IMG/VR virus record: IMGVR_UViG_2706794911_000004
Span: 44,422-108,421 of that record
Length of the DNA stretch: 64,000 nt
Reading direction: 5' to 3' (one strand)
DNA from: a virus
Taxonomy: Duplodnaviria > Caudoviricetes
This document shows, piece after piece, positions 35,386-60,943 of this stretch. The position numbers and the translations under genes were made by a program. The notes beneath the pieces are model-generated. The model searched no databases. It was not told the origin of the DNA and saw nothing but the letters and a program-made list of their open reading frames with translations. The stretch's first letter is position 1. Every line of letters starts with the position of its first letter.

Positions 35386-36063
35386 CTAATCATTAGTAAG
35401 AATGTTGTAACAATCTGTTACAATTTCAATCTGGTGTAACACATCGTCAATTGCATCATGCGCGTTGTTGTTTTCATATCTTGCCAGAAACTGCTCTCTT
35501 GTCTTGCCTACCTTAGTGTAAGCCAGCTCTAAAATTGTCCTCACGTCTCTATCGTTCCTGTAGTTTATAGGGTACTTAAGTCCGAGATTCTCCATCTGAG
35601 TTCTAATGAGGTTGTTATCAAACAGTGTCCCATCCCCCCACAAGTATACGGCACCTTCCTGCTCGTTCAGCCACCTACAAAAACATCTAACTAAATCATC
35701 ACTTGACATACTTCCTCTATTTAAAATATCCTGTAGAAGCTCTTTATTGGTGTTTAGCCACCACTTAATAGTTGATCCGGTTGTTTTCATTGTTTCATTC
35801 ATAGTAATATTTGCACATTCGTTAAATATTCTTCCTACATACCCTGTTCTAATATCAAATGTGGCGGCTGCAAGCTGGATAATATTAGAATCAGGTTTAT
35901 TACCTAGTGTCTCAATATCAACCATAATATCTGTTCTACTTGAAACTGCGGGCGGGTAGTCATCAGCTTTTATAATAACCTCAGTGACTACCCTCCTCTC
36001 TTTACGCCATCCTTCTTCGCTCTTAATATAAACGTCTCTTTCCACATTCTCATTAATTCCCAT
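35386..36063 (-). CDS. DEDDh 3'-5' exonuclease
   Basis: IMVDIETL, LFDN, RDVRT, HDAIDD. Confidence 0.85.
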   Translation of the reverse strand: MGINENVERDVYIKSEEGWRKERRVVTEVIIKADDYPPAVSSRTDIMVDIETLGNKPDSNIIQLAAATFDIRTGYVGRIFNECANITMNETMKTTGSTIKWWLNTNKELLQDILNRGSMSSDDLVRCFCRWLNEQEGAVYLWGDGTLFDNNLIRTQMENLGLKYPINYRNDRDVRTILELAYTKVGKTREQFLARYENNNAHDAIDDVLHQIEIVTDCYNILTND

Positions 36064-40033: not shown

Positions 40034-40089
40034 TTAATGTAACCTGCTGGGAGCCTATCTCAGCAAATAAAATTTAAGGAGAATTGCAA

Positions 40090-40944
40090 ATGGAAGAAAT
40101 TAGAGGTTTTAAAGTTTTTAATCCTGACTGGACTTGTAGAGAGTTTCAATATGAAGTGGGTCAAACGTATAAGCAGGAAAGAAAACCAAGTATTTGTGAC
40201 ACTGGATTTCACTTTTGTAAAGAAGCAAAGGATTGTTTCAACTATTACAGATTTGACCCAAACAATAAGGTTGCAGAAGTTGTTGCACTAGGTGAAATTG
40301 CAGAAGAAGGTGACAAATGCAGCACTAACAAGATTGAAATTGTCAGGGAAATTCCTTGGGGTGAACTGCTATCTTTGGTGAACCTTGGAAAAGGCAATTC
40401 AGGTCTTTGCAACAGCGGTGATTGGAACAGCGGTGATTGGAACAGCGGTAATTGCAACAGCGGTGATTGGAACAGCGGTAATCGCAACAGCGGTGATTGG
40501 AACAGCGGTGATTGGAACAGCGGTGATTGGAACAGCGGTAATCGCAACAGCGGTGATTGCAACAGCGGTAATCGCAACAGCGGTGATTGGAACAAGGCTT
40601 CCAATGTTGCAGGGTGTTTCAATACAGAGCAGCACAAATTAGTGTTCTTTGACAAAGAAACAGACATGACCTTTGAACAATGGAGAATGTCAGATGCATA
40701 TTACTTAATGAGCCAAATTGATTTCAGACCTACTGAATGGATTTATGAAGAAGATATGACTGATGAAGAAAAGGCGGCACACCCTGAATATGAAACAACA
40801 GGCGGTTATTTGAAGAAACGTAACAATAAAGATTCATGCATTAACTGGTGGAACGGACTGCCCGAAGCAAGAAGAGATGTTATCAAGAGCATTCCAAACT
40901 TTGATGCTGAAAAGTTCTTTGAGATTACTGGAATCAGAGTGTAA
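40090..40944 (+). CDS. Pentapeptide (NSGDW) repeat protein
   Basis: GFKVFNPDWTCREFQYEVG...GFHFC N-domain; NSG(D/N)(W/C/R) repeats; TTGGYLK...IPNFDAE C-domain. Confidence 0.9.
   Translation: MEEIRGFKVFNPDWTCREFQYEVGQTYKQERKPSICDTGFHFCKEAKDCFNYYRFDPNNKVAEVVALGEIAEEGDKCSTNKIEIVREIPWGELLSLVNLGKGNSGLCNSGDWNSGDWNSGNCNSGDWNSGNRNSGDWNSGDWNSGDWNSGNRNSGDCNSGNRNSGDWNKASNVAGCFNTEQHKLVFFDKETDMTFEQWRMSDAYYLMSQIDFRPTEWIYEEDMTDEEKAAHPEYETTGGYLKKRNNKDSCINWWNGLPEARRDVIKSIPNFDAEKFFEITGIRV
40411..40594 (+). repeat. 15-bp tandem repeat AACAGCGGTRATYGS, about 12 units
   Basis: Directly visible; encodes the pentapeptide repeat. Confidence 0.95.
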
Positions 40945-41151
40945 TAACATAGGAGGTGAAAGTATGGGACTAGAGTTAAAACGGAGTATTGTCATTAGTG
41001 CAGTAGCCGCCCACACGAGGTTACCACTTATTTACGTAACAGGATTGTTTGATAGTCTTGTTGTGGGTGGGGCAATCAGTAGTAATACTTCTATATATGA
41101 TACCACTAGTATTCTTATGGAGTCTGTCTAGCCCCGCCCCACCTACCCACT

Positions 41152-41178
41152 GACTTCCTTAATTGGAAGTCTTTTTTA
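41152..41178 (+). terminator. Rho-independent terminator
   Basis: GACTTCC/GGAAGTC plus T run. Confidence 0.7.
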
Positions 41179-41226
41179 TTGTCATCAGTCATTCATGCAT
41201 AAAAATCTATAGAGGGAGGGTTGCAT

Positions 41227-41364
41227 ATGAATACTATTTTAGGTGTCACTGATAGAAATATTGAAAAAGAAATACTGCTTGGAATCAATGAAAGAGCGTA
41301 TGAAGCAGGAATAATTGACTATGAACTTTATACTAAAGCTAGGGCAGACCTAGAAAAATTATAG
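41227..41364 (+). CDS. Small SHOCT-like protein (45 aa)
   Basis: GGAGGG RBS; ERAYEAGIIDYELY. Confidence 0.5.
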   Translation: MNTILGVTDRNIEKEILLGINERAYEAGIIDYELYTKARADLEKL

Positions 41365-41495
41365 CCTTTCCCTGTCTTCGTAGTATTCATGCCTAAGAAT
41401 CTTGTCTAGTGATGGACAGGTATTGGTGACGTAATTAAGCTTTTACAAGAGATTAAAAACAAAGTTAAAAAGCTAAATAATTAGGAGGGGTTAAA

Positions 41496-42167
41496 ATGGA
41501 TGATATTAAATTATGCAAGTCTGCACTAAATGACTGGTTTGAGTATTACATAAGTGGTAAGAAGTTAGCAGACTGGTGCACACATAACGGTAAGAGCGAG
41601 GAAGAGTTGTCTACCGTGTCAAAGCAAATGTCCGCTAGGTTTAGGTATGGCACAACAGACGCAGAAATTATACCCATTATAACCAAGGCTAAAAGGTATT
41701 GGTATGACGAGTATCTTAAGTTTAATGGCAAAGTTGTAGATGCAGTAGAGTGTGCAGAAGGCGACTACAGTACTGTTAGGGGTAGGTTCGGATCAGTCAC
41801 AACTGAGCTCAGCAGGTGGAAAGACTTTAAGGCATCAGGTGAATCACTTGAGAGTTACGTTAGTAGTTCTGCCCCCACCCAGTCTACTGGTCATTTCAAG
41901 CTACTCAGTGCTGTATACGATGGTTATGAACCCAGCAACAACAATGATATTGAATTTACTTTTAGTCAGGAGGTATACATCCCTTCCACCAAAGAGGGTT
42001 TTACCTCCTCAAATGAGACAACAGATACAACAAAGATCGACAAATTAACTGATAAGACACCAGAAGTTGATAAGGTCCAGCGAAGCCGTACAGTGTCATT
42101 TAAAATAAATGGTAAGGCTATTGAAATACCTGAAAACATGTTTGAACGTGCGATGGCGTGCATTTAG
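41496..42167 (+). CDS. Divergent IS66 TnpA (Orf1)-like DNA-binding protein
   Basis: W...SGKKLADWCTHNG and WKDFKASGESLESYV resemble the TnpA HTH; C-terminal VSFKINGKAIEI; upstream of a TnpB-like gene. Confidence 0.5.
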   Translation: MDDIKLCKSALNDWFEYYISGKKLADWCTHNGKSEEELSTVSKQMSARFRYGTTDAEIIPIITKAKRYWYDEYLKFNGKVVDAVECAEGDYSTVRGRFGSVTTELSRWKDFKASGESLESYVSSSAPTQSTGHFKLLSAVYDGYEPSNNNDIEFTFSQEVYIPSTKEGFTSSNETTDTTKIDKLTDKTPEVDKVQRSRTVSFKINGKAIEIPENMFERAMACI

Positions 42168-42195
42168 TGAAAATATATTATAAGGGAGTGTTTTT

Positions 42196-42543
42196 ATGAA
42201 AATGAGTTTAGCGGGTAAGACGTTGAAAGTTAACGTAGCGGCAGGTGTAACTGACCTAAGAAATTGTAGCAACGGTTTATCTGAAATTGTGCGAGAACAC
42301 TTTAAAATGGACCCTACAAATGGTCAGATGTATGTATTTGCGAATAGAAACCGAGATATGATTAAGATTATGTGGTATGACATACCAGATCAAACTAGGC
42401 ACTTGCATACAGTAGAAGCAGAAAATAGATTTAGTTTCAGTTGGCTAGATGGTACTAAAAAAGGTACTGCTAAAATAACTTATGCTGAGCTAAACCGCCT
42501 ACTGTCTAAAAGTTACCACCAAATTTCACAGATTTCAGTATAG
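42196..42543 (+). CDS. IS66 TnpB (Orf2)-like accessory protein
   Basis: GVTDLRNCSNGLSEIV...DPTNGQMYVFANRNRDMIKIMWYD matches the TDMRKG.DGL...DP...FVF.NR..D.IK.L.WD signature. Confidence 0.8.
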   Translation: MKMSLAGKTLKVNVAAGVTDLRNCSNGLSEIVREHFKMDPTNGQMYVFANRNRDMIKIMWYDIPDQTRHLHTVEAENRFSFSWLDGTKKGTAKITYAELNRLLSKSYHQISQISV

Positions 42544-42588
42544 CGTACTTAGTCACTACCATCAAATAAAAATTTAGGAGGAGTTAAA

Positions 42589-42993
42589 ATGGATTTAAAA
42601 AGTGTAGTAGAGGAAGCTTTAAGGTATTACCTAAATGACAATACAGGTAAGTTTGATGACGGTGAGTTTATTGATATGCGTTACTTAAAACCCAGTGGCG
42701 TAAGGGATAGAATTGTTAAAGCTATTGCAGGTAGTGGCTTAGTAGGTAGCCCGCCACCCACAAAGGTTTTTACCAGTAGGCAAAAAGAGCTAATAAAACA
42801 ACTAACTGGTGACTATATAATGGATTCTGGCATTACCTTGTGTAATGCGGTAGAGGATGAAGACCCCGAGAGCCTAGAGCAAAGTATAGTCGAATTAAAC
42901 GCTGCCGCAGCGGTCTACCTTTACTGCCTACAAAACACAGATGACGAAGGAACAGAATGTAACTGTAGCGGGGGGTGCAATTGTGGTAAATAG
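42589..42993 (+). CDS. Hypothetical protein
   Basis: AGGAGG RBS; not transposase-like. Confidence 0.65.
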   Translation: MDLKSVVEEALRYYLNDNTGKFDDGEFIDMRYLKPSGVRDRIVKAIAGSGLVGSPPPTKVFTSRQKELIKQLTGDYIMDSGITLCNAVEDEDPESLEQSIVELNAAAAVYLYCLQNTDDEGTECNCSGGCNCGK

Positions 42994-43080
42994 AATAGGT
43001 ACGTTGTTATTTCAGGGGGTGCTTATAAGCACCCTCTTTATTTTGTGGAGAAATATTAGGAGTGAAGTCTAAAAACCCAC

Positions 43081-43109
43081 TTAACTTCTGCTGGTCTGTA
43101 AGGTATATA
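43081..43109 (+). promoter_or_regulatory. Phage promoter motif TTAAC-N16-GGTATATA
   Basis: Fixed-spacing copy before an RBS. Confidence 0.7.
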
Positions 43110-43129
43110 AGTATAGGAGGTGTTAATGT

Positions 43130-43285
43130 GTGAAAAGACAATGGAGAGTTATATATTACAACGGAGTAACTACATGTGGAGATAAACAGCTCAAAGAGCT
43201 CGTACAAAGTGAGTTAGAGTTCATACATAGTATTGAGCTTATTGAAAACTATGAGGGGGCGGAGAAATGTCTAGATACTTTGTAA
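43130..43285 (+). CDS. Small hypothetical protein (51 aa)
   Basis: GGAGG RBS, GTG start. Confidence 0.45.
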   Translation: MKRQWRVIYYNGVTTCGDKQLKELVQSELEFIHSIELIENYEGAEKCLDTL

Positions 43286-43533
43286 TACAAAATAATGCAG
43301 ACGGCGTATGTATCGACAGTGTGGATGAGAAAACATTGCTGGAAAGACTGAGAACAGATGAGCAAGGTGAGTCGTATTATGGGGCAGACATGGAGTTTTT
43401 GGATTATCTACCAGACATATATGCTGGTAGCTTTATGTGGGGGGACGACAATCATGTCGTTATTATTAAAGGAAATGTGGTTGTACCTAAACCTGTCAAA
43501 GTAGTCACAGAATATACACTGGAAGATGTCTAA
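43267..43533 (+). CDS. Hypothetical protein
   Basis: IIKGNVVVPKPVKVVTEY C-terminus. Confidence 0.65.
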   Translation: MSRYFVIQNNADGVCIDSVDEKTLLERLRTDEQGESYYGADMEFLDYLPDIYAGSFMWGDDNHVVIIKGNVVVPKPVKVVTEYTLEDV

Positions 43534-44272: not shown

Positions 44273-44822
44273 TGTAAGAGTTAAACTCATAGATAGATAC
44301 AGAGTAGCCAGTAATGTATCTGTCCTACTTATGATAGGCGTAATAGCGTTCCTGCTTCACATGCTAGGTGACGAATTTAATGATTTAAACCTGCAGGTAG
44401 AAGAACTACGAACTGCAAATAGTGATCTACAGATATCTCTTACACAAGCATTACTCTATACTGAGGCACTTGAAGCTGAAGTGGTAGAACTTAAAGTAGA
44501 AAATGAAAAGCTTAGGACTTTTAGAGCAAAGGTTACTGCTTATTCTCCTTACGATGACAGGAATGGTATTAATTCTAGTGGTGACCCGAGCGTAACTGCT
44601 ACTGGCACCCGCCCGCGTATTGGGGTGGCGGCAGTAGACCCAAAAAAGATTCCATATGGTTCAAGATTATTAGTCCCTGGGTATGGTGAGGTCACCGCAG
44701 AGGATACAGGAGGTGCTCTGAGACAGTATGATGGCTACGCTATAGATGTATTTATGGACACCTATAGTGAGGCTATGTCGTTTGGCGTGAAATACATCGA
44801 TGTAAAAATATTAGACCACTAA
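44256..44822 (+). CDS. Membrane-anchored 3D-domain cell-wall protein
   Basis: TM plus coiled coil, then VTAYS...TATG...AVDPKKIPYGS...AEDTGGA...IDVFM. Confidence 0.9.
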   Translation: MLVESSVRVKLIDRYRVASNVSVLLMIGVIAFLLHMLGDEFNDLNLQVEELRTANSDLQISLTQALLYTEALEAEVVELKVENEKLRTFRAKVTAYSPYDDRNGINSSGDPSVTATGTRPRIGVAAVDPKKIPYGSRLLVPGYGEVTAEDTGGALRQYDGYAIDVFMDTYSEAMSFGVKYIDVKILDH

Positions 44823-44907: not shown

Positions 44908-46515
44908 ATGGTTAGAATCAATGCAGCTAAGGTAGATAAGTACCTACATATCACAGAGGAGAAAAAGAAAGAGTGGCTGAGACTGTTTCCCTTCCTTGAG
45001 TTTGATAGGTTTGGGCGGGCAAGTGTAGGTAACATACAGGTAGATGATACAGCGTTGGCAGAAGAGTTGTACAACTTTGTATTGAGTGAAAGCTTTTTTA
45101 ATGCGATAAAGATATGGGAGAACAAGAATGAGTTGAAGCTACCAAATTACTTTGACATAGCCCTTAAAAGGTTTAACTGCGGTACCACTCGCCTTGTTGC
45201 GAACAGCGAAGTGTACCTATGTAGTACGGCGGGCGGTGAGGACAAGCATATGAGACTGTCAAAGATACTTGCACAAATACAGGCAATATGGGAAAAGGAA
45301 ACATGTCCTGAGTATTCAGAGTTAAGAAAAGAAATTAAGAAGCTAAGAAAAGAAGGGCTCACTTTTTCAAACAGTCTTGAGTTAGTAGATCTAAGTGAGA
45401 AGAAAAAGAGCCTAGAAATAGGTAACTTCTATGTTGCCTACGACCACTTTCAGAACGCTATAAAAAAGGGTACTGAGATGTGGCTTTCTATTAACCCGCT
45501 AGACTTGATTACTTCTTCGGGTAATCAAGGGGATAACCCCACAAGATTTGACTCATGCTGGTCACTTGAAATGGAGCTAGCCTCAGATGAAATTCATGTT
45601 GACAGATCTGGTTGTCATTCATCAGGTTCTGCTTGTTTGAACATGGGAAGAATTACAAACCGAGGTATATTATTCATAAAAAATGGTAGGACACTTAATG
45701 TTCCCGGCACAGACTTCGATTTTATCGGTTATTCAGAAAGATCCCATGTTTGGCTTGATGAGATATGCGGAAACAGTAGTCTCTTCTTAGAAAGGGTATA
45801 CCCTTCTAAATGTTACGAAAGGAGACGTGACTGGTTTGAGGCATTAACCAAGTCAGGTTTTGATGTAAAAGAAGAATCCTGCAATACAGAAGAATTTGAT
45901 TACCAAGATAGTGAAAACTTGAATAACTACTCAAATAAGTCGGGTGGCGCATTGTTCCTTGATAACGTAGCTATTACATCTGGTACATTGTACTATTTAA
46001 ACGGTTGTAGAATGGATTATGACTACGATGATAACATAGACGGAATCATAGAAGCTGTTTATTGTTGTGAATGTGGGGATTCCACAGATAGTGATGACAG
46101 GTACGAAGTAGGTGGTAACATATATTGCAGTTACTGCTTTAATGATAGATATGTTAGTTGCCAATATTGCGGGGAGCCTGTAGAAATCAATAATGCAATT
46201 GAGATAGAAGGCTACTACTACTGTGAGTACCACGCTAACGTAAGAGGTTGTCAGTGTGAAGGTTGTGGGGAGTGGGCATATACCGAGCACATGGAAGAAT
46301 ACAACGGTGATTATTACTGCCGTAGCTGTTTTGATGAACACCACACTTACTGTGCAAATTGTGGTGAAGCTGTCAGTTACAATGATGCAGTTGAATTAGA
46401 ATATGAATACTACTGTGAAGACTGTGTATCAGTTTACAGTTCGTGCGGTAGTAAGTATCCAGTATCTGATGGTTACTTTGTATGCAAAAATTGTACAAAC
46501 GAAGGGGTGGCATAG
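44908..46515 (+). CDS. Hypothetical protein with C-terminal tandem zinc-ribbon repeats
   Basis: Repeated CxxC...YCxxC units; central SINPLD...DSCW motif. Confidence 0.7.
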   Translation: MVRINAAKVDKYLHITEEKKKEWLRLFPFLEFDRFGRASVGNIQVDDTALAEELYNFVLSESFFNAIKIWENKNELKLPNYFDIALKRFNCGTTRLVANSEVYLCSTAGGEDKHMRLSKILAQIQAIWEKETCPEYSELRKEIKKLRKEGLTFSNSLELVDLSEKKKSLEIGNFYVAYDHFQNAIKKGTEMWLSINPLDLITSSGNQGDNPTRFDSCWSLEMELASDEIHVDRSGCHSSGSACLNMGRITNRGILFIKNGRTLNVPGTDFDFIGYSERSHVWLDEICGNSSLFLERVYPSKCYERRRDWFEALTKSGFDVKEESCNTEEFDYQDSENLNNYSNKSGGALFLDNVAITSGTLYYLNGCRMDYDYDDNIDGIIEAVYCCECGDSTDSDDRYEVGGNIYCSYCFNDRYVSCQYCGEPVEINNAIEIEGYYYCEYHANVRGCQCEGCGEWAYTEHMEEYNGDYYCRSCFDEHHTYCANCGEAVSYNDAVELEYEYYCEDCVSVYSSCGSKYPVSDGYFVCKNCTNEGVA

Positions 46516-56271: not shown

Positions 56272-56787
56272 TTGCGGACAAGGCTAGAACCTTATATACA
56301 AAATAACGTATTATCGTTAAGGAAACTTAAAGAGGTCTCCCCCGCTCTCTACAAGTACATGCTTACTTGTGGTGACGAGTATAATGGTATAGAGATACTA
56401 GATGACTCAAAAGTAATAAAGGGCGGTGATATCAAAAAGTACCTAACCCACTACTATGGTGAGGTTGTAGATGTGTCACGCCTCAGGAGGGGTGCCCTCT
56501 ATATTTACAACAAGATTGTCAGTATGGGTAACGTCCAGAAGGTTATAGAGGGGTGGGGGTTTACAGTTATTTATGAAGGAAAGGCAACTGAGTACTCTCT
56601 AAAAAAAGATCTGCAGAAGTATGTTATCAGGGGCAACATTCTGGGAAGGCTACCTAAGGATATACAGAATAAAGTGTGGTATTTAGCCAATAAAAATAAA
56701 ATGTCTGTGGGTGAATACTTGAATAAACTAGGCTACATTAAAGGAACTAGAAAGCTATGGCGGAGGTATGCGGATGATAAAAGCTAA
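56272..56787 (+). CDS. Basic hypothetical protein
   Basis: ORF with RBS. Confidence 0.6.
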   Translation: MRTRLEPYIQNNVLSLRKLKEVSPALYKYMLTCGDEYNGIEILDDSKVIKGGDIKKYLTHYYGEVVDVSRLRRGALYIYNKIVSMGNVQKVIEGWGFTVIYEGKATEYSLKKDLQKYVIRGNILGRLPKDIQNKVWYLANKNKMSVGEYLNKLGYIKGTRKLWRRYADDKS

Positions 56788-58621
56788 AAAAATCGATACT
56801 AAAATAGGTGCTAGGGTTAAGCTAGAGTTTAGAAAGAACGAATTGATCGAGAGGGTACTTGCTACAATGAAAGGGGCTTTCTATGACAGGGTTACAAAAT
56901 CTTGGACTCTCCCCTACTCTGCCCGCCCCGATATAGAGAAAAAACTAGGTAACTTCCTACTCATATGGGAAGATGAAGATACCCCCTTCAATGGTGGTAT
57001 TGATATGTCCACTATCCCTATACAGCCAGTTGTACCAGGGTACAGTGTAGAGTATAACAAAGCAGGGGAAGTGGTGGGAGCGACTGGGTTCAAGGTTCCA
57101 CCGTATGGTGCTTTTCAAGTACAGGGTTTTAACATTATGGTAGAGAGAGACTTTGCTATTATTGGAGATCATATGGGTTTGGGGAAGACGTTTCAGTCAA
57201 TAACCGCAATAGAGGCTAGGAAGAAACTTGGTCAATTGCAAAGGTGCCTTGTGCTTACTAAGGCTACCCTGCTCTATAACTGGCGGGACGAGGTAGAAAA
57301 ATTCACAGATTGTAAAGCAGTAGTCTTAACAGGACCACCTAAGCAGAGACATAAAATGTTAATAGAGTTAGAAAAAGACACAAGCTGGACGTTCCTGATC
57401 ATGTCCTATGAGACGTATAGGATAGCTAACATTAGCGTAACAAGCATAGATGACGCTTTACCTATAGACGCACTACTCCTTGACGAAGCTCATAAAATAC
57501 GCAACCCCATGTCACGGATAGGACAGTGTGTTAACCATATCTACTTCAAGTATGTCTATCTACTCACCGCCACCCCTATTCTAAACACGCCACTGGAATC
57601 ATTTAACTATCTAAAACTAGGTAAGAAATTACCTGTAAGTGGTAGTAGTATTGTGCAGGAATGGTGGAATTTCAAGGACAGATATGCTGTCTACGGGGGG
57701 AGTAATGGCATGGAGCTTGTAGGGTATGATAACATAGGTGAGCTTAGACAGGTCATACAAGACAACATGATCAGAAGGCTGAAAAAAGACGTGCTTAAAG
57801 ACCTACCTGACGTAATGTTCAAAGATGTTAGGATAGAGCTTACTGCTGCGCAGAAGAAGATATACGATGCTGTACGAAAGGAAATTCTAGCAGACTTAGC
57901 GGAAACAGACTTAGAGAAAGTACCTTCCATGCTAGCTAAGATCACAAGACTACAGCAAGTAACGTCAGCTCTAGACAATGTTGGAATAGCGACCACAGCT
58001 TCTAACAATGCTAAGTTAAGTGCCCTTATGGATATTGTAGAAGATGCTGTTGAGGCGGGCGAGAAAGTGATCATATTCTCTAAGTTCCGCCCCACTATCG
58101 AACTGCTTACAGAAAAGTTTAAAAAGCTAAACCCTGCTGTAATTACAGGTGGTACTGACAGTCACGCACTTCCAGCAGACTTGGCAGTAGCAAAAGCAAA
58201 GAAGAAATACAAAGATTGGAATATGTGGGCGGAGGAAGATAGACAAAAAGTAATAAAAGATTTAACAACAAGTGATAGACAACTAGAAGTGTATAAGTTC
58301 CAAGGCGACGATACTTGTAAGGTGTTTATAGGTAGTATATTTGCTTGTGCAGAGGGTCTAACCCTTACTGCCGCCACCCACGTCATAAACTTTGACTATC
58401 CGTTCAATTGGGCAATATATGAACAGTCCTTTTCCAGATGCCATAGACTGGGACAAAAGAATGCTGTGACTGTCCATAATATCATGTGTTCAGGTACAGT
58501 AGATGAGAAGATTTTCCAGATTATTATGCTCAAGAAAGGCATCAGTGAATCGTTGCTCGACAGTAAGGTGGATAGCATAGAGCAACAAAAAGCTTTTGAT
58601 TTTGTAAAATCTGTAATTTAA
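56768..58621 (+). CDS. SNF2-family (HARP-like) helicase
   Basis: DHMGLGKT, DEAH, TATP, EKVIIFS, EGLTLTAA, SRCHRLGQ. Confidence 0.92.
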   Translation: MRMIKAKKIDTKIGARVKLEFRKNELIERVLATMKGAFYDRVTKSWTLPYSARPDIEKKLGNFLLIWEDEDTPFNGGIDMSTIPIQPVVPGYSVEYNKAGEVVGATGFKVPPYGAFQVQGFNIMVERDFAIIGDHMGLGKTFQSITAIEARKKLGQLQRCLVLTKATLLYNWRDEVEKFTDCKAVVLTGPPKQRHKMLIELEKDTSWTFLIMSYETYRIANISVTSIDDALPIDALLLDEAHKIRNPMSRIGQCVNHIYFKYVYLLTATPILNTPLESFNYLKLGKKLPVSGSSIVQEWWNFKDRYAVYGGSNGMELVGYDNIGELRQVIQDNMIRRLKKDVLKDLPDVMFKDVRIELTAAQKKIYDAVRKEILADLAETDLEKVPSMLAKITRLQQVTSALDNVGIATTASNNAKLSALMDIVEDAVEAGEKVIIFSKFRPTIELLTEKFKKLNPAVITGGTDSHALPADLAVAKAKKKYKDWNMWAEEDRQKVIKDLTTSDRQLEVYKFQGDDTCKVFIGSIFACAEGLTLTAATHVINFDYPFNWAIYEQSFSRCHRLGQKNAVTVHNIMCSGTVDEKIFQIIMLKKGISESLLDSKVDSIEQQKAFDFVKSVI

Positions 58622-59719: not shown

Positions 59720-60943
59720 ATGTTAGAGTTAAAAGGGAGATATAATGTAGCTAAAGTTTTTACAGATAATATAGAAGAAACAGCAATTGGAGAAATTATA
59801 AATTTATGCAATCAAGAATTTACAAAGGATAGTAAGATAAGGATAATGCCTGATGTTCATGCTGGTATGGGATGTGTTATAGGAACTACAATGACAATTA
59901 AAGATAAGATAGTACCGAATTTAGTTGGCGTTGACATTGGTTGTGGTATGGTTACTATAAAATTAGATGATGTAGATTTGGATTTACCTAAATTAGACCA
60001 ATTTATAAGAAGTAATATTCCTAGTGGATTCAATATAAATGAACATGCGCAGGTAGATTTTAAAGATGAAATAACTAATTTAAAATGTTTTAGAGATATA
60101 CCAAAGTCATCTAAAGAATTTAATAGAGCGTTAGGTTCGTTGGGTGGAGGGAATCATTTTATAGAAGTAGATATTGATGATGAAAACAACAAATATCTTA
60201 TAATTCATAGTGGTAGCAGAAATTTAGGAAATCAAGTTGCAAGATATTATCAAAATAAAGCATATGACTATCATAATGGTATAGATGAAAAATTTGAAGA
60301 AGCGAAATTGGAATTAATTAAAAATTATAAAGCAATGGGTAAAAGAAAAGAAATACAAAACGCATTAAAAAAATTACAATTAAAACATAAGAAAGAATGT
60401 AAAATACCAAAGGATTTATGTTACTTAGAAGGAATTTTAATGCAAAATTACTTACATGATATGAAAATTGTTCAACAGTATGCAAATTTAAATCGTAAAG
60501 TGATGGCAAAAAGAATTGTAGAAGAATGTTTGGGTTTGGAATATAATAAACTACATGTGTTCCAAACAATTCACAACTATATAGATTTAGAAAACATGAT
60601 TTTGAGAAAAGGTTCTATATCTGCTCAATGTGATGAAATAGTGTTGATTCCTATTAACATGAGAGATGGTTGTATAATAGCAAAAGGCAAAGGCAACCCT
60701 GAATGGAATTATTCAGCACCACATGGTGCAGGAAGATTGATGAGTAGAGGCAAAGCAAAAGAATTAATTATATTAAATGATTTTAAGGAAACAATGAAAG
60801 ATATTTATAGTTCTTCAGTTGGTGAACATACATTAGATGAAGCACCTATGGCATATAAACCTATAGAAGAAATTTTAAATAACATAGGTGATACAGTGGA
60901 GATTCTAAAAATAATTAAACCTATATATAACTTTAAGGCTTAA
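59720..60943 (+). CDS. rtcB: RtcB RNA 3'-phosphate/5'-OH ligase
   Basis: MPDVH, VGVDIGCG, GGGNHF, HSGSR, HNY, RKG, HGAGR, DEAPMAYK. Confidence 0.95.
   Translation: MLELKGRYNVAKVFTDNIEETAIGEIINLCNQEFTKDSKIRIMPDVHAGMGCVIGTTMTIKDKIVPNLVGVDIGCGMVTIKLDDVDLDLPKLDQFIRSNIPSGFNINEHAQVDFKDEITNLKCFRDIPKSSKEFNRALGSLGGGNHFIEVDIDDENNKYLIIHSGSRNLGNQVARYYQNKAYDYHNGIDEKFEEAKLELIKNYKAMGKRKEIQNALKKLQLKHKKECKIPKDLCYLEGILMQNYLHDMKIVQQYANLNRKVMAKRIVEECLGLEYNKLHVFQTIHNYIDLENMILRKGSISAQCDEIVLIPINMRDGCIIAKGKGNPEWNYSAPHGAGRLMSRGKAKELIILNDFKETMKDIYSSSVGEHTLDEAPMAYKPIEEILNNIGDTVEILKIIKPIYNFKA

Follow-up and report, generated by a model that had tools for sequence, protein, structure and literature searches.

In a complete insertion sequence of the IS66 family the genes tnpA and tnpB are followed by the transposase gene tnpC; transposition requires all three open reading frames (ORFs), and translation of tnpA is coupled to that of tnpB. 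We know of no established function for IS66 TnpB, which has its name alone in common with the TnpB of IS200/IS605 (OrfB_IS605), an RNA-guided nuclease of a different family. The locus described here comprises a tnpB gene of the IS66 family and the 223-aa ORF preceding it, in a stretch of 64,000 nucleotides of a Caudoviricetes record (IMG/VR IMGVR_UViG_2706794911_000004, positions 44,422 to 108,421; hereafter the window, in whose numbering positions are given), which corresponds to positions 68305-132304 of contig C28 of a 5.39-Mb host genome with 35% GC. The original prediction, made from the letters of the window, took the two genes for a domesticated TnpA/TnpB accessory pair without a transposase. 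We consider it an evenly balanced proposition, judged from sequence, that they are an old IS66 tnpA-tnpB relic retained with a changed role, a helix-turn-helix (HTH) DNA-binder together with a TnpB-derived partner.

Literature searches found no paper on the function of IS66 TnpB; nor did they find one on phages that carry IS66 accessory pairs without a transposase, whether those of the clade described below or others. PMC3971601 places beta-clamp-binding motifs in IS66 TnpC and, by sequence, in some IS66 TnpBs. A 2026 preprint merely uses PF05717 as its "TnpB" model.

An IS66 TnpB gene without transposase or element ends

The 115-aa protein encoded by the second gene matched PF05717 (TnpB_IS66) with an E value of 1.1e-16 and 61.0 bits (cut-off 26.6), its residues 11-104 aligning with positions 2-92 of the 101 of the profile; it also matched NF033819 (IS66_TnpB, 57.3 bits versus a cut-off of 50) and phrog_623. 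It is a true IS66 TnpB-family gene, and the signature read in the original prediction was correct. The host's complete IS66 encodes a TnpB that is 40% identical to it (40/99 residues, E 2e-20), so that the strong divergence also expected there was found, with no near-identity to an active IS66. In an alignment of 30 TnpB sequences all seven invariant columns are retained (T19, D20, R22, L28, F48, K57 and W83) at an overall identity of about 35%, and residues 11-62, the N-terminal half, show the usual family pattern, reading GxTDxR...DP...YVFxNRxRDxIKI. The AlphaFold 2 (AF2) model, with a predicted local distance difference test score (pLDDT) of 73, is a small alpha/beta domain, for which a fold search returned no PDB or BFVD match at E <= 0.001.

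A Pfam scan of the protein at E <= 1 returned PF05717 without any OrfB_IS605-type match, in agreement with the earlier statement that this TnpB is unrelated to that of IS200/IS605. Of note, the two families appear to be mixed in the annotation of Pseudomonas phage Marin (OR683406.1, 11269-11613; locus L048), in which an ordinary IS66 TnpB is labelled "transposon-associated TnpB endonuclease".

No transposase gene accompanies the pair, as had been predicted. PF03050 (TnpC) matched three times in the genome, on contigs C99, C72 and C32, and not at all on C28, the contig of the window; moreover, a TnpC profile built here and compared with 522 stop-to-stop pieces from 36-50 kb of the window gave a best E value of 0.91. 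The predicted absence of GTAA-type terminal repeats held as well: of 11 inverted-repeat pairs found, none brackets the tnpB and 223-aa genes, and GTAAGCG, which we take to be the type of end that marks IS66 termini, occurs twice in the window (8644 and 10346) against 3.5 expected, in neither case near the genes. The window tnpB is present as a single copy in the genome, and neither GC content nor GC content at third codon positions separates the pair from phage genes or from the host IS66. As for IS66 elsewhere in the host, the complete tnpA-tnpB-tnpC element lies on C99, a short contig of its own, and remnants were seen as a TnpC fragment with an in-frame TAG (C72:12020-12340) and as adjoining fragments of TnpA and TnpC (C32:6083-6342).

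The gene upstream of tnpB

Immediately before tnpB, on the same strand and 28 nt away, lies the 223-aa ORF, so that the native order of an HTH-candidate gene followed by tnpB, noted in the original prediction, is as stated. Both frames are open and each is preceded by a good Shine-Dalgarno sequence 7 nt before the ATG (AGGAGG at 41483-41488 for the 223-aa ORF, AAGGGAG at 42182-42188 for tnpB), again as claimed. The ORF carries an N-terminal HTH-like motif, SG-x6-WC-x2-N (residues ~16-46), a second, weak SG motif at residues 108-121, and at its C-terminus a beta-hairpin followed by a helix (E195-204, E207-210, H213-222), predicted in a low-confidence AF2 model. It matched no family in Pfam, PHROG, NCBIfam or PADLOC, and the anti-defence role once proposed for the pair finds no backing in the PADLOC comparison.

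Comparisons were also made with profiles built here. With filters off, on a TnpA profile made from 32 TnpAs adjoining TnpBs in genomes of the same class, the 223-aa ORF was the best of 303 window ORFs (5.4 bits, E 0.38), and it was likewise first of 303 on a second TnpA-type profile (7.4 bits, E 0.061). Its TnpA score ranked 15 among 1841 length-matched ORFs of the genome and was equalled in 44 of 5000 shuffles. On a profile of the HTH only (57 segments) it came fifth of 5334 genome ORFs with 11.0 bits and E 0.086, rank 1 being the host's true TnpA, and the match coincides with the most conserved signature of the TnpA family, SG-x6-WC-x2-N. BLASTP for a TnpA-type HTH gave E 0.034, and three of the ten structural neighbours listed by the ESM Atlas were HTH_Tnp_1 or IS66-TnpA clusters, at sub-threshold template-modelling scores of 0.19-0.28 that serve as a lead only. 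Of the two TnpA-like HTH starts originally described, the first finds weak support in the HTH profile, and the second scores 1.1 bits on the same profile. Taken together, the evidence, mostly position and the HTH signature, is suggestive, and the 223-aa ORF probably descends from TnpA.

Canonical IS66 elements, such as the C99 copy, share with the window the TnpB domain, with its GxTDxR motif and seven invariant columns, and the order of an HTH gene and then tnpB, both on the same strand, although the HTH of the 223-aa ORF is weakly supported. Unlike them, the window pair has no TnpC and no terminal inverted repeats, occurs once in the genome and has a TnpB at most 40% identical; its upstream gene is double the length and goes unrecognised by the curated TnpA models, a gap of 28 nt takes the place of an overlapping tnpA stop and tnpB start, and the GFxLxYKRL core of TnpB is gone.

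A TnpC-less TnpA/TnpB clade in uncultivated phages

The TnpB alignment, used as query against IMG/VR, retrieved 76 loci. TnpC follows TnpB in 44 of them, which are ordinary IS66 insertions, and the remaining 32 have no TnpC match in the fetched flank; 28 of these 32 were kept as the TnpC-less set. The four excluded are L058 and L090, whose TnpBs group with canonical ones in the tree, and L089 and L112, which have short TnpB ORFs. Across the 76 viral loci, the ORF ending beside the TnpB start matches the TnpA profile in 62. The 26 distinct TnpBs of the TnpC-less set form one clade, with a Shimodaira-Hasegawa-like approximate likelihood ratio test (SH-aLRT) value of 100 and a stem length of 1.8; a phage TnpB clade lacking tnpC, of the kind envisaged in the original prediction, does exist. 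Its members are IMG/VR loci in the range L092-L125, from phages of ~36-43 kb (for example L104:1832-4961, L107:3411-5899 and L116:779-4441).

In 25 clade loci the gene ending at the TnpB start encodes a protein of 156-224 aa, which gives two matches to the canonical TnpA profile, one N-terminal and the other running from about residue 60 to the end. Among 24 distinct partner proteins, 21 match with a whole-protein E <= 1e-3, and in 10 both copies do so at E <= 1e-3; to judge from these matches, the clade partner is a TnpA whose HTH has been duplicated. The terminase gene terL lies downstream on the same strand in 18 of the 24 clade loci having at least 2.6 kb of downstream sequence (in L104, phrog_38 with E 4e-78), and a P22-like portal gene follows terL in L116, the locus checked. 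Variable small genes, for an HNH endonuclease, an RNA ligase and phrog_2072, stand between TnpB and terL; in L107 the distance from the end of TnpB to terL is 10 bp. PF03050 is absent from all five near-complete viral genomes of the clade (96-100% complete by CheckV, 36-39 kb).

The median proportion of nonsynonymous differences (pN) in clade TnpBs is 0.19 versus a proportion of synonymous differences (pS) of 0.86, and the partner evolves faster (pN 0.49 versus pS 0.75); since 294 of 300 TnpB pairs are saturated at synonymous sites, pN and pS are given and no reliable ratio. These substitution patterns indicate that clade TnpB is under purifying selection. The clade is large, with at least 274 protein clusters at E <= 1e-20 when one member was used as query, labelled in the sources as "transposase" at most, and is distant from deposited phages, of which five records match, all below 60% identity and the best at 34%. 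On the evidence of these sequences, the clade sets a precedent, namely that co-option of TnpC-less IS66 pairs exists in phages, and the clade pair is a possible exaptation, for instance in a packaging-related role.

Comparison of the window pair with the phage clade

The phage clade, like the window, has a TnpB without TnpC inside a phage. Its partner is likewise comparable to the 223-aa window ORF: a protein of 156-224 aa that opens with a TnpA-type HTH and closes with a beta-beta-alpha element, a second HTH-like segment and a variable linker lying between. The differences are nevertheless several. Clade TnpBs keep the GFxLxYKRL core that the window TnpB has lost, the clade genes touch or overlap at stop and start whereas the window genes are 28 nt apart, and clade pairs are mostly upstream of terL, while the window pair has orphan neighbours and no adjoining terL.

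In the free tree the window TnpB was placed among canonical sequences, outside the phage clade, and it scored 60-67 bits on canonical profiles versus 33 bits on that of the clade. At eight diagnostic columns it shares three residues with canonical TnpBs, one with the clade and four with neither. A tree forcing it into the clade had a likelihood higher by 23.7 and was not rejected by the approximately unbiased (AU) test (p 0.83), a result that attraction between two long branches could explain. The proposal of a co-opted phage module gains from the existence of TnpC-less, duplicated-HTH pairs in phages but not from the window pair itself, which is a singleton.

Retention, decay or chance adjacency

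In the reading that we prefer, an IS66-family tnpA-tnpB cassette would have inserted long ago in an ancestor of the ~110-kb prophage that holds the locus, and tnpC and the element ends would later have been lost, leaving a cassette no longer able to transpose, in which both frames would still be open and fit for translation despite a divergence well outside the range of sampled IS66 elements. The 223-aa protein would then be a TnpA-derived HTH DNA-binder, which the TnpB-derived small alpha/beta protein may join in a DNA-bound two-protein complex serving the phage in regulation or DNA targeting. Exaptation of the pair is plausible.

Several results weigh against this reading, first among them the isolation of the two proteins. 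A 5.8-billion-cluster index returned only the query itself for each, and HMMER over 1.8 billion representatives returned for the 223-aa ORF itself and one weak match, to a 1752-aa protein; IMG/VR held no close relative of either, and PDB sequence searches gave nothing below E 0.09. TnpB matches were present in 10 of 36 genomes of the same family (host included), all at most 45% identical outside the host, and in 28 phage records of INPHARED, all below 60% identity, the two examined being complete IS66 elements with TnpC. The pair consists of singletons without relatives, and selection for its retention is conjectural.

Moreover, the C-terminal half of the window TnpB has diverged strongly. It has lost the GFxLxYKRL(E/D) core, with DQTRHLHTV in place of GFxLxYKRL, and the WP motif, where WL now stands, and seven residues are deleted; the protein keeps 8 of the 19 columns that reach at least 80% conservation in both the canonical and the phage-clade TnpBs, and in a TnpB tree of 90 rows the end branch measures 2.85 changes per column versus a median of 0.14. 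The lost core motif fits relaxed constraint as well as a new function, and suggests that the ancestral, transposition-linked activity was altered or weakened. Given the long branch, the lost core and the lack of relatives, the protein may no longer act as a TnpB.

The upstream ORF adds to these difficulties. The NCBIfam IS66 TnpA models NF047593 and NF047595 missed it, both whole at E <= 1 and in three pieces at E <= 10 (the host TnpA scores 61.4 bits on the curated IS66 TnpA models), and hhalign against TnpA gave a probability of 6-7% (P 0.005). The TnpA-like C-terminal strand described in the original prediction proved indistinguishable from chance (rank 1042 of 5334, 0.3 bits, on a profile of 55 C-termini), and the HTH duplication read into the same ORF fell short of significance, 283 of 5000 shuffles reaching the self-alignment score (p 0.057). 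The single-sequence AF2 model of the ORF, with a pLDDT of 36, was unusable for a fold search.

Much of this would be expected if the genes were a decaying, non-functional IS66 fragment, its frames being leftovers en route to loss: a pair that is a singleton in all databases searched, an extremely long TnpB end branch, a lost core with its deletion, an upstream ORF unrecognised by curated TnpA models and, around them, an accessory region rich in orphan ORFs. Yet both frames are open behind consensus Shine-Dalgarno sequences at 7-nt spacing, although tnpC and the ends have gone without trace, and neither gene has a stop or a frameshift. At this base composition a frame would stay open by chance over 115 codons with probability 1.7e-4 and over 223 codons with probability 5e-8, and it is therefore unlikely that neutral decay would have reached 40% identity and left no stop. 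With two open frames, intact ribosome-binding sites (RBSs) and 7/7 invariant TnpB columns kept in spite of the low overall identity, pure decay is hard to square with the data, and we regard it as rather improbable.

The retained-relic reading also requires that the two genes belong together, and it could be that only tnpB derives from IS66, the 223-aa ORF being an unrelated phage HTH protein and the two genes no pair at all. Such a chance neighbour would account for the absence of a significant match to any TnpA model, for a length of 223 aa against ~113 aa in canonical TnpA, for the unsupported C-terminal TnpA motif and for the 28-nt gap where canonical and phage-clade pairs have overlapping stop and start. 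It would not account for an ORF that tops the window on both TnpA-type profiles and stands fifth of 5334 on the HTH profile, with its match on the very SG...WC..N signature that TnpA conserves best; nor is a TnpA neighbour unusual, as a TnpA-profile ORF adjoins the TnpB start in 62/76 viral loci and the phage clade has long two-HTH partners, of 156-224 aa. We consider an unrelated neighbour unlikely. Finally, a still-mobile, non-autonomous IS66 derivative moved in trans by the host transposase, for which the complete element with TnpC on C99 could provide, is close to refuted by the lack of terminal inverted repeats, the single copy in the genome and the 40% identity to the TnpB of that element.

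Organisation of the locus and its prophage

The window contains genes for a 1833-aa tape-measure protein, an M23 peptidase tail protein, an SNF2 helicase, RtcB and an Rv2179c-like exonuclease, as well as a weak capsid-E-like match, and GC content is 0.36-0.41 over C28 from ~20 to 130 kb versus ~0.30-0.35 in most of the flanks. From these phage genes and the GC block the locus is placed in the accessory region of a prophage; it is an accessory, rightward-transcribed part of a large prophage (~110 kb), of which no close relative was found among 50,697 deposited phage records.

The pair belongs to a unit of four small genes on the + strand between two terminator-like hairpins, each gene with a consensus Shine-Dalgarno sequence (Table 1); the opposite strand over the unit has ORFs of at most 65 aa only, and an Rfam scan of 40800-43400 at E <= 1 gave no match. 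A search for RNA data sets containing the stretch turned up none, and the one sequencing run that contains it may be the source sample. Nine sigma-70-like sites were found versus 7.1 expected in shuffles, and the match ahead of the unit is by itself no evidence of a promoter. For the 45-aa ORF, which the original prediction had proposed as a SHOCT-like third part of the module, Pfam returned no SHOCT match at E <= 1, its sole match there being PF22445 (E 0.09). A 28-nt direct repeat, 89% identical (41474-41501 and 42567-42594), takes in the RBS and the opening codons of both the 223-aa ORF and the 134-aa ORF, whose proteins both start with MD.

Table 1. Features of the four-gene unit and its boundaries, in window positions.
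Feature	Position	Strand	Remarks
Terminator-like hairpin and T-run	41152..41171	+	7-bp stem, 4 GC pairs, TTTTTTATTG tail; ends preceding transcription unit
Weak sigma-70-like promoter match	41179..41206	+	9/12 positions; possible start of four-gene unit
45-aa ORF	41227..41364	+	Strong RBS, no family match
223-aa orphan ORF, candidate diverged TnpA	41496..42167	+	N-terminal HTH-like motif
115-aa IS66 TnpB-family gene	42196..42543	+	PF05717, NF033819, phrog_623
134-aa orphan ORF	42589..42993	+	Cys-rich C-terminus; last before terminator
Terminator-like hairpin closing the unit	43014..43037	+	10-bp stem, 6 GC pairs, T-rich tail

Downstream of tnpB lie the orphan 134-aa ORF, small ORFs, a gene for a 3D-domain protein and a peptidase gene. 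A 535-aa ORF without Pfam match (44908-46515, +) has in its C-terminal third Cys-x2-Cys pairs resembling repeated zinc ribbons, and is directly followed by an M20/M28-type peptidase gene. On the other side, at 40084-40944 (+), a 286-aa protein has an N-terminal DUF7666 domain (Pfam E 4.5e-33; phrog_14105 E 7e-121) and a run of pentapeptide-like NSGDW/NSGNR repeats, and is 51-56% identical to ORFs of a human-gut phage scaffold (L126). One phage has DNA in common with this neighbouring DUF7666 gene, and no TnpA/TnpB homologue was found close by in it. Farther away, an SNF2-family helicase (56768-58621, +), an RtcB RNA ligase (59720-60943, +) and an Rv2179c-like 3'-5' exoribonuclease (35386-36063, -) are encoded; together they suggest RNA repair or counter-defence functions.

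Implications for IS66 accessory proteins

Being a singleton, the window copy is weak evidence when taken alone; it led, however, to a large and conserved phage clade of the same design, which could be used to test the role of TnpB. A TnpA/TnpB pair kept without TnpC would part the accessory proteins' own activity from transposition. A more far-reaching idea, which we offer as speculation and think improbable, is that IS66 TnpA-TnpB is in itself a complete DNA-targeting module, adopted by phages without the transposase at least twice, once in the clade and independently in this prophage. The clade pair, upstream of terL, could then serve packaging-site recognition or replisome recruitment, and the window pair would be a working, rapidly evolving two-protein DNA-binding system. 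If this were true, the window pair would offer a transposase-free handle on the long-unexplained IS66 TnpB.

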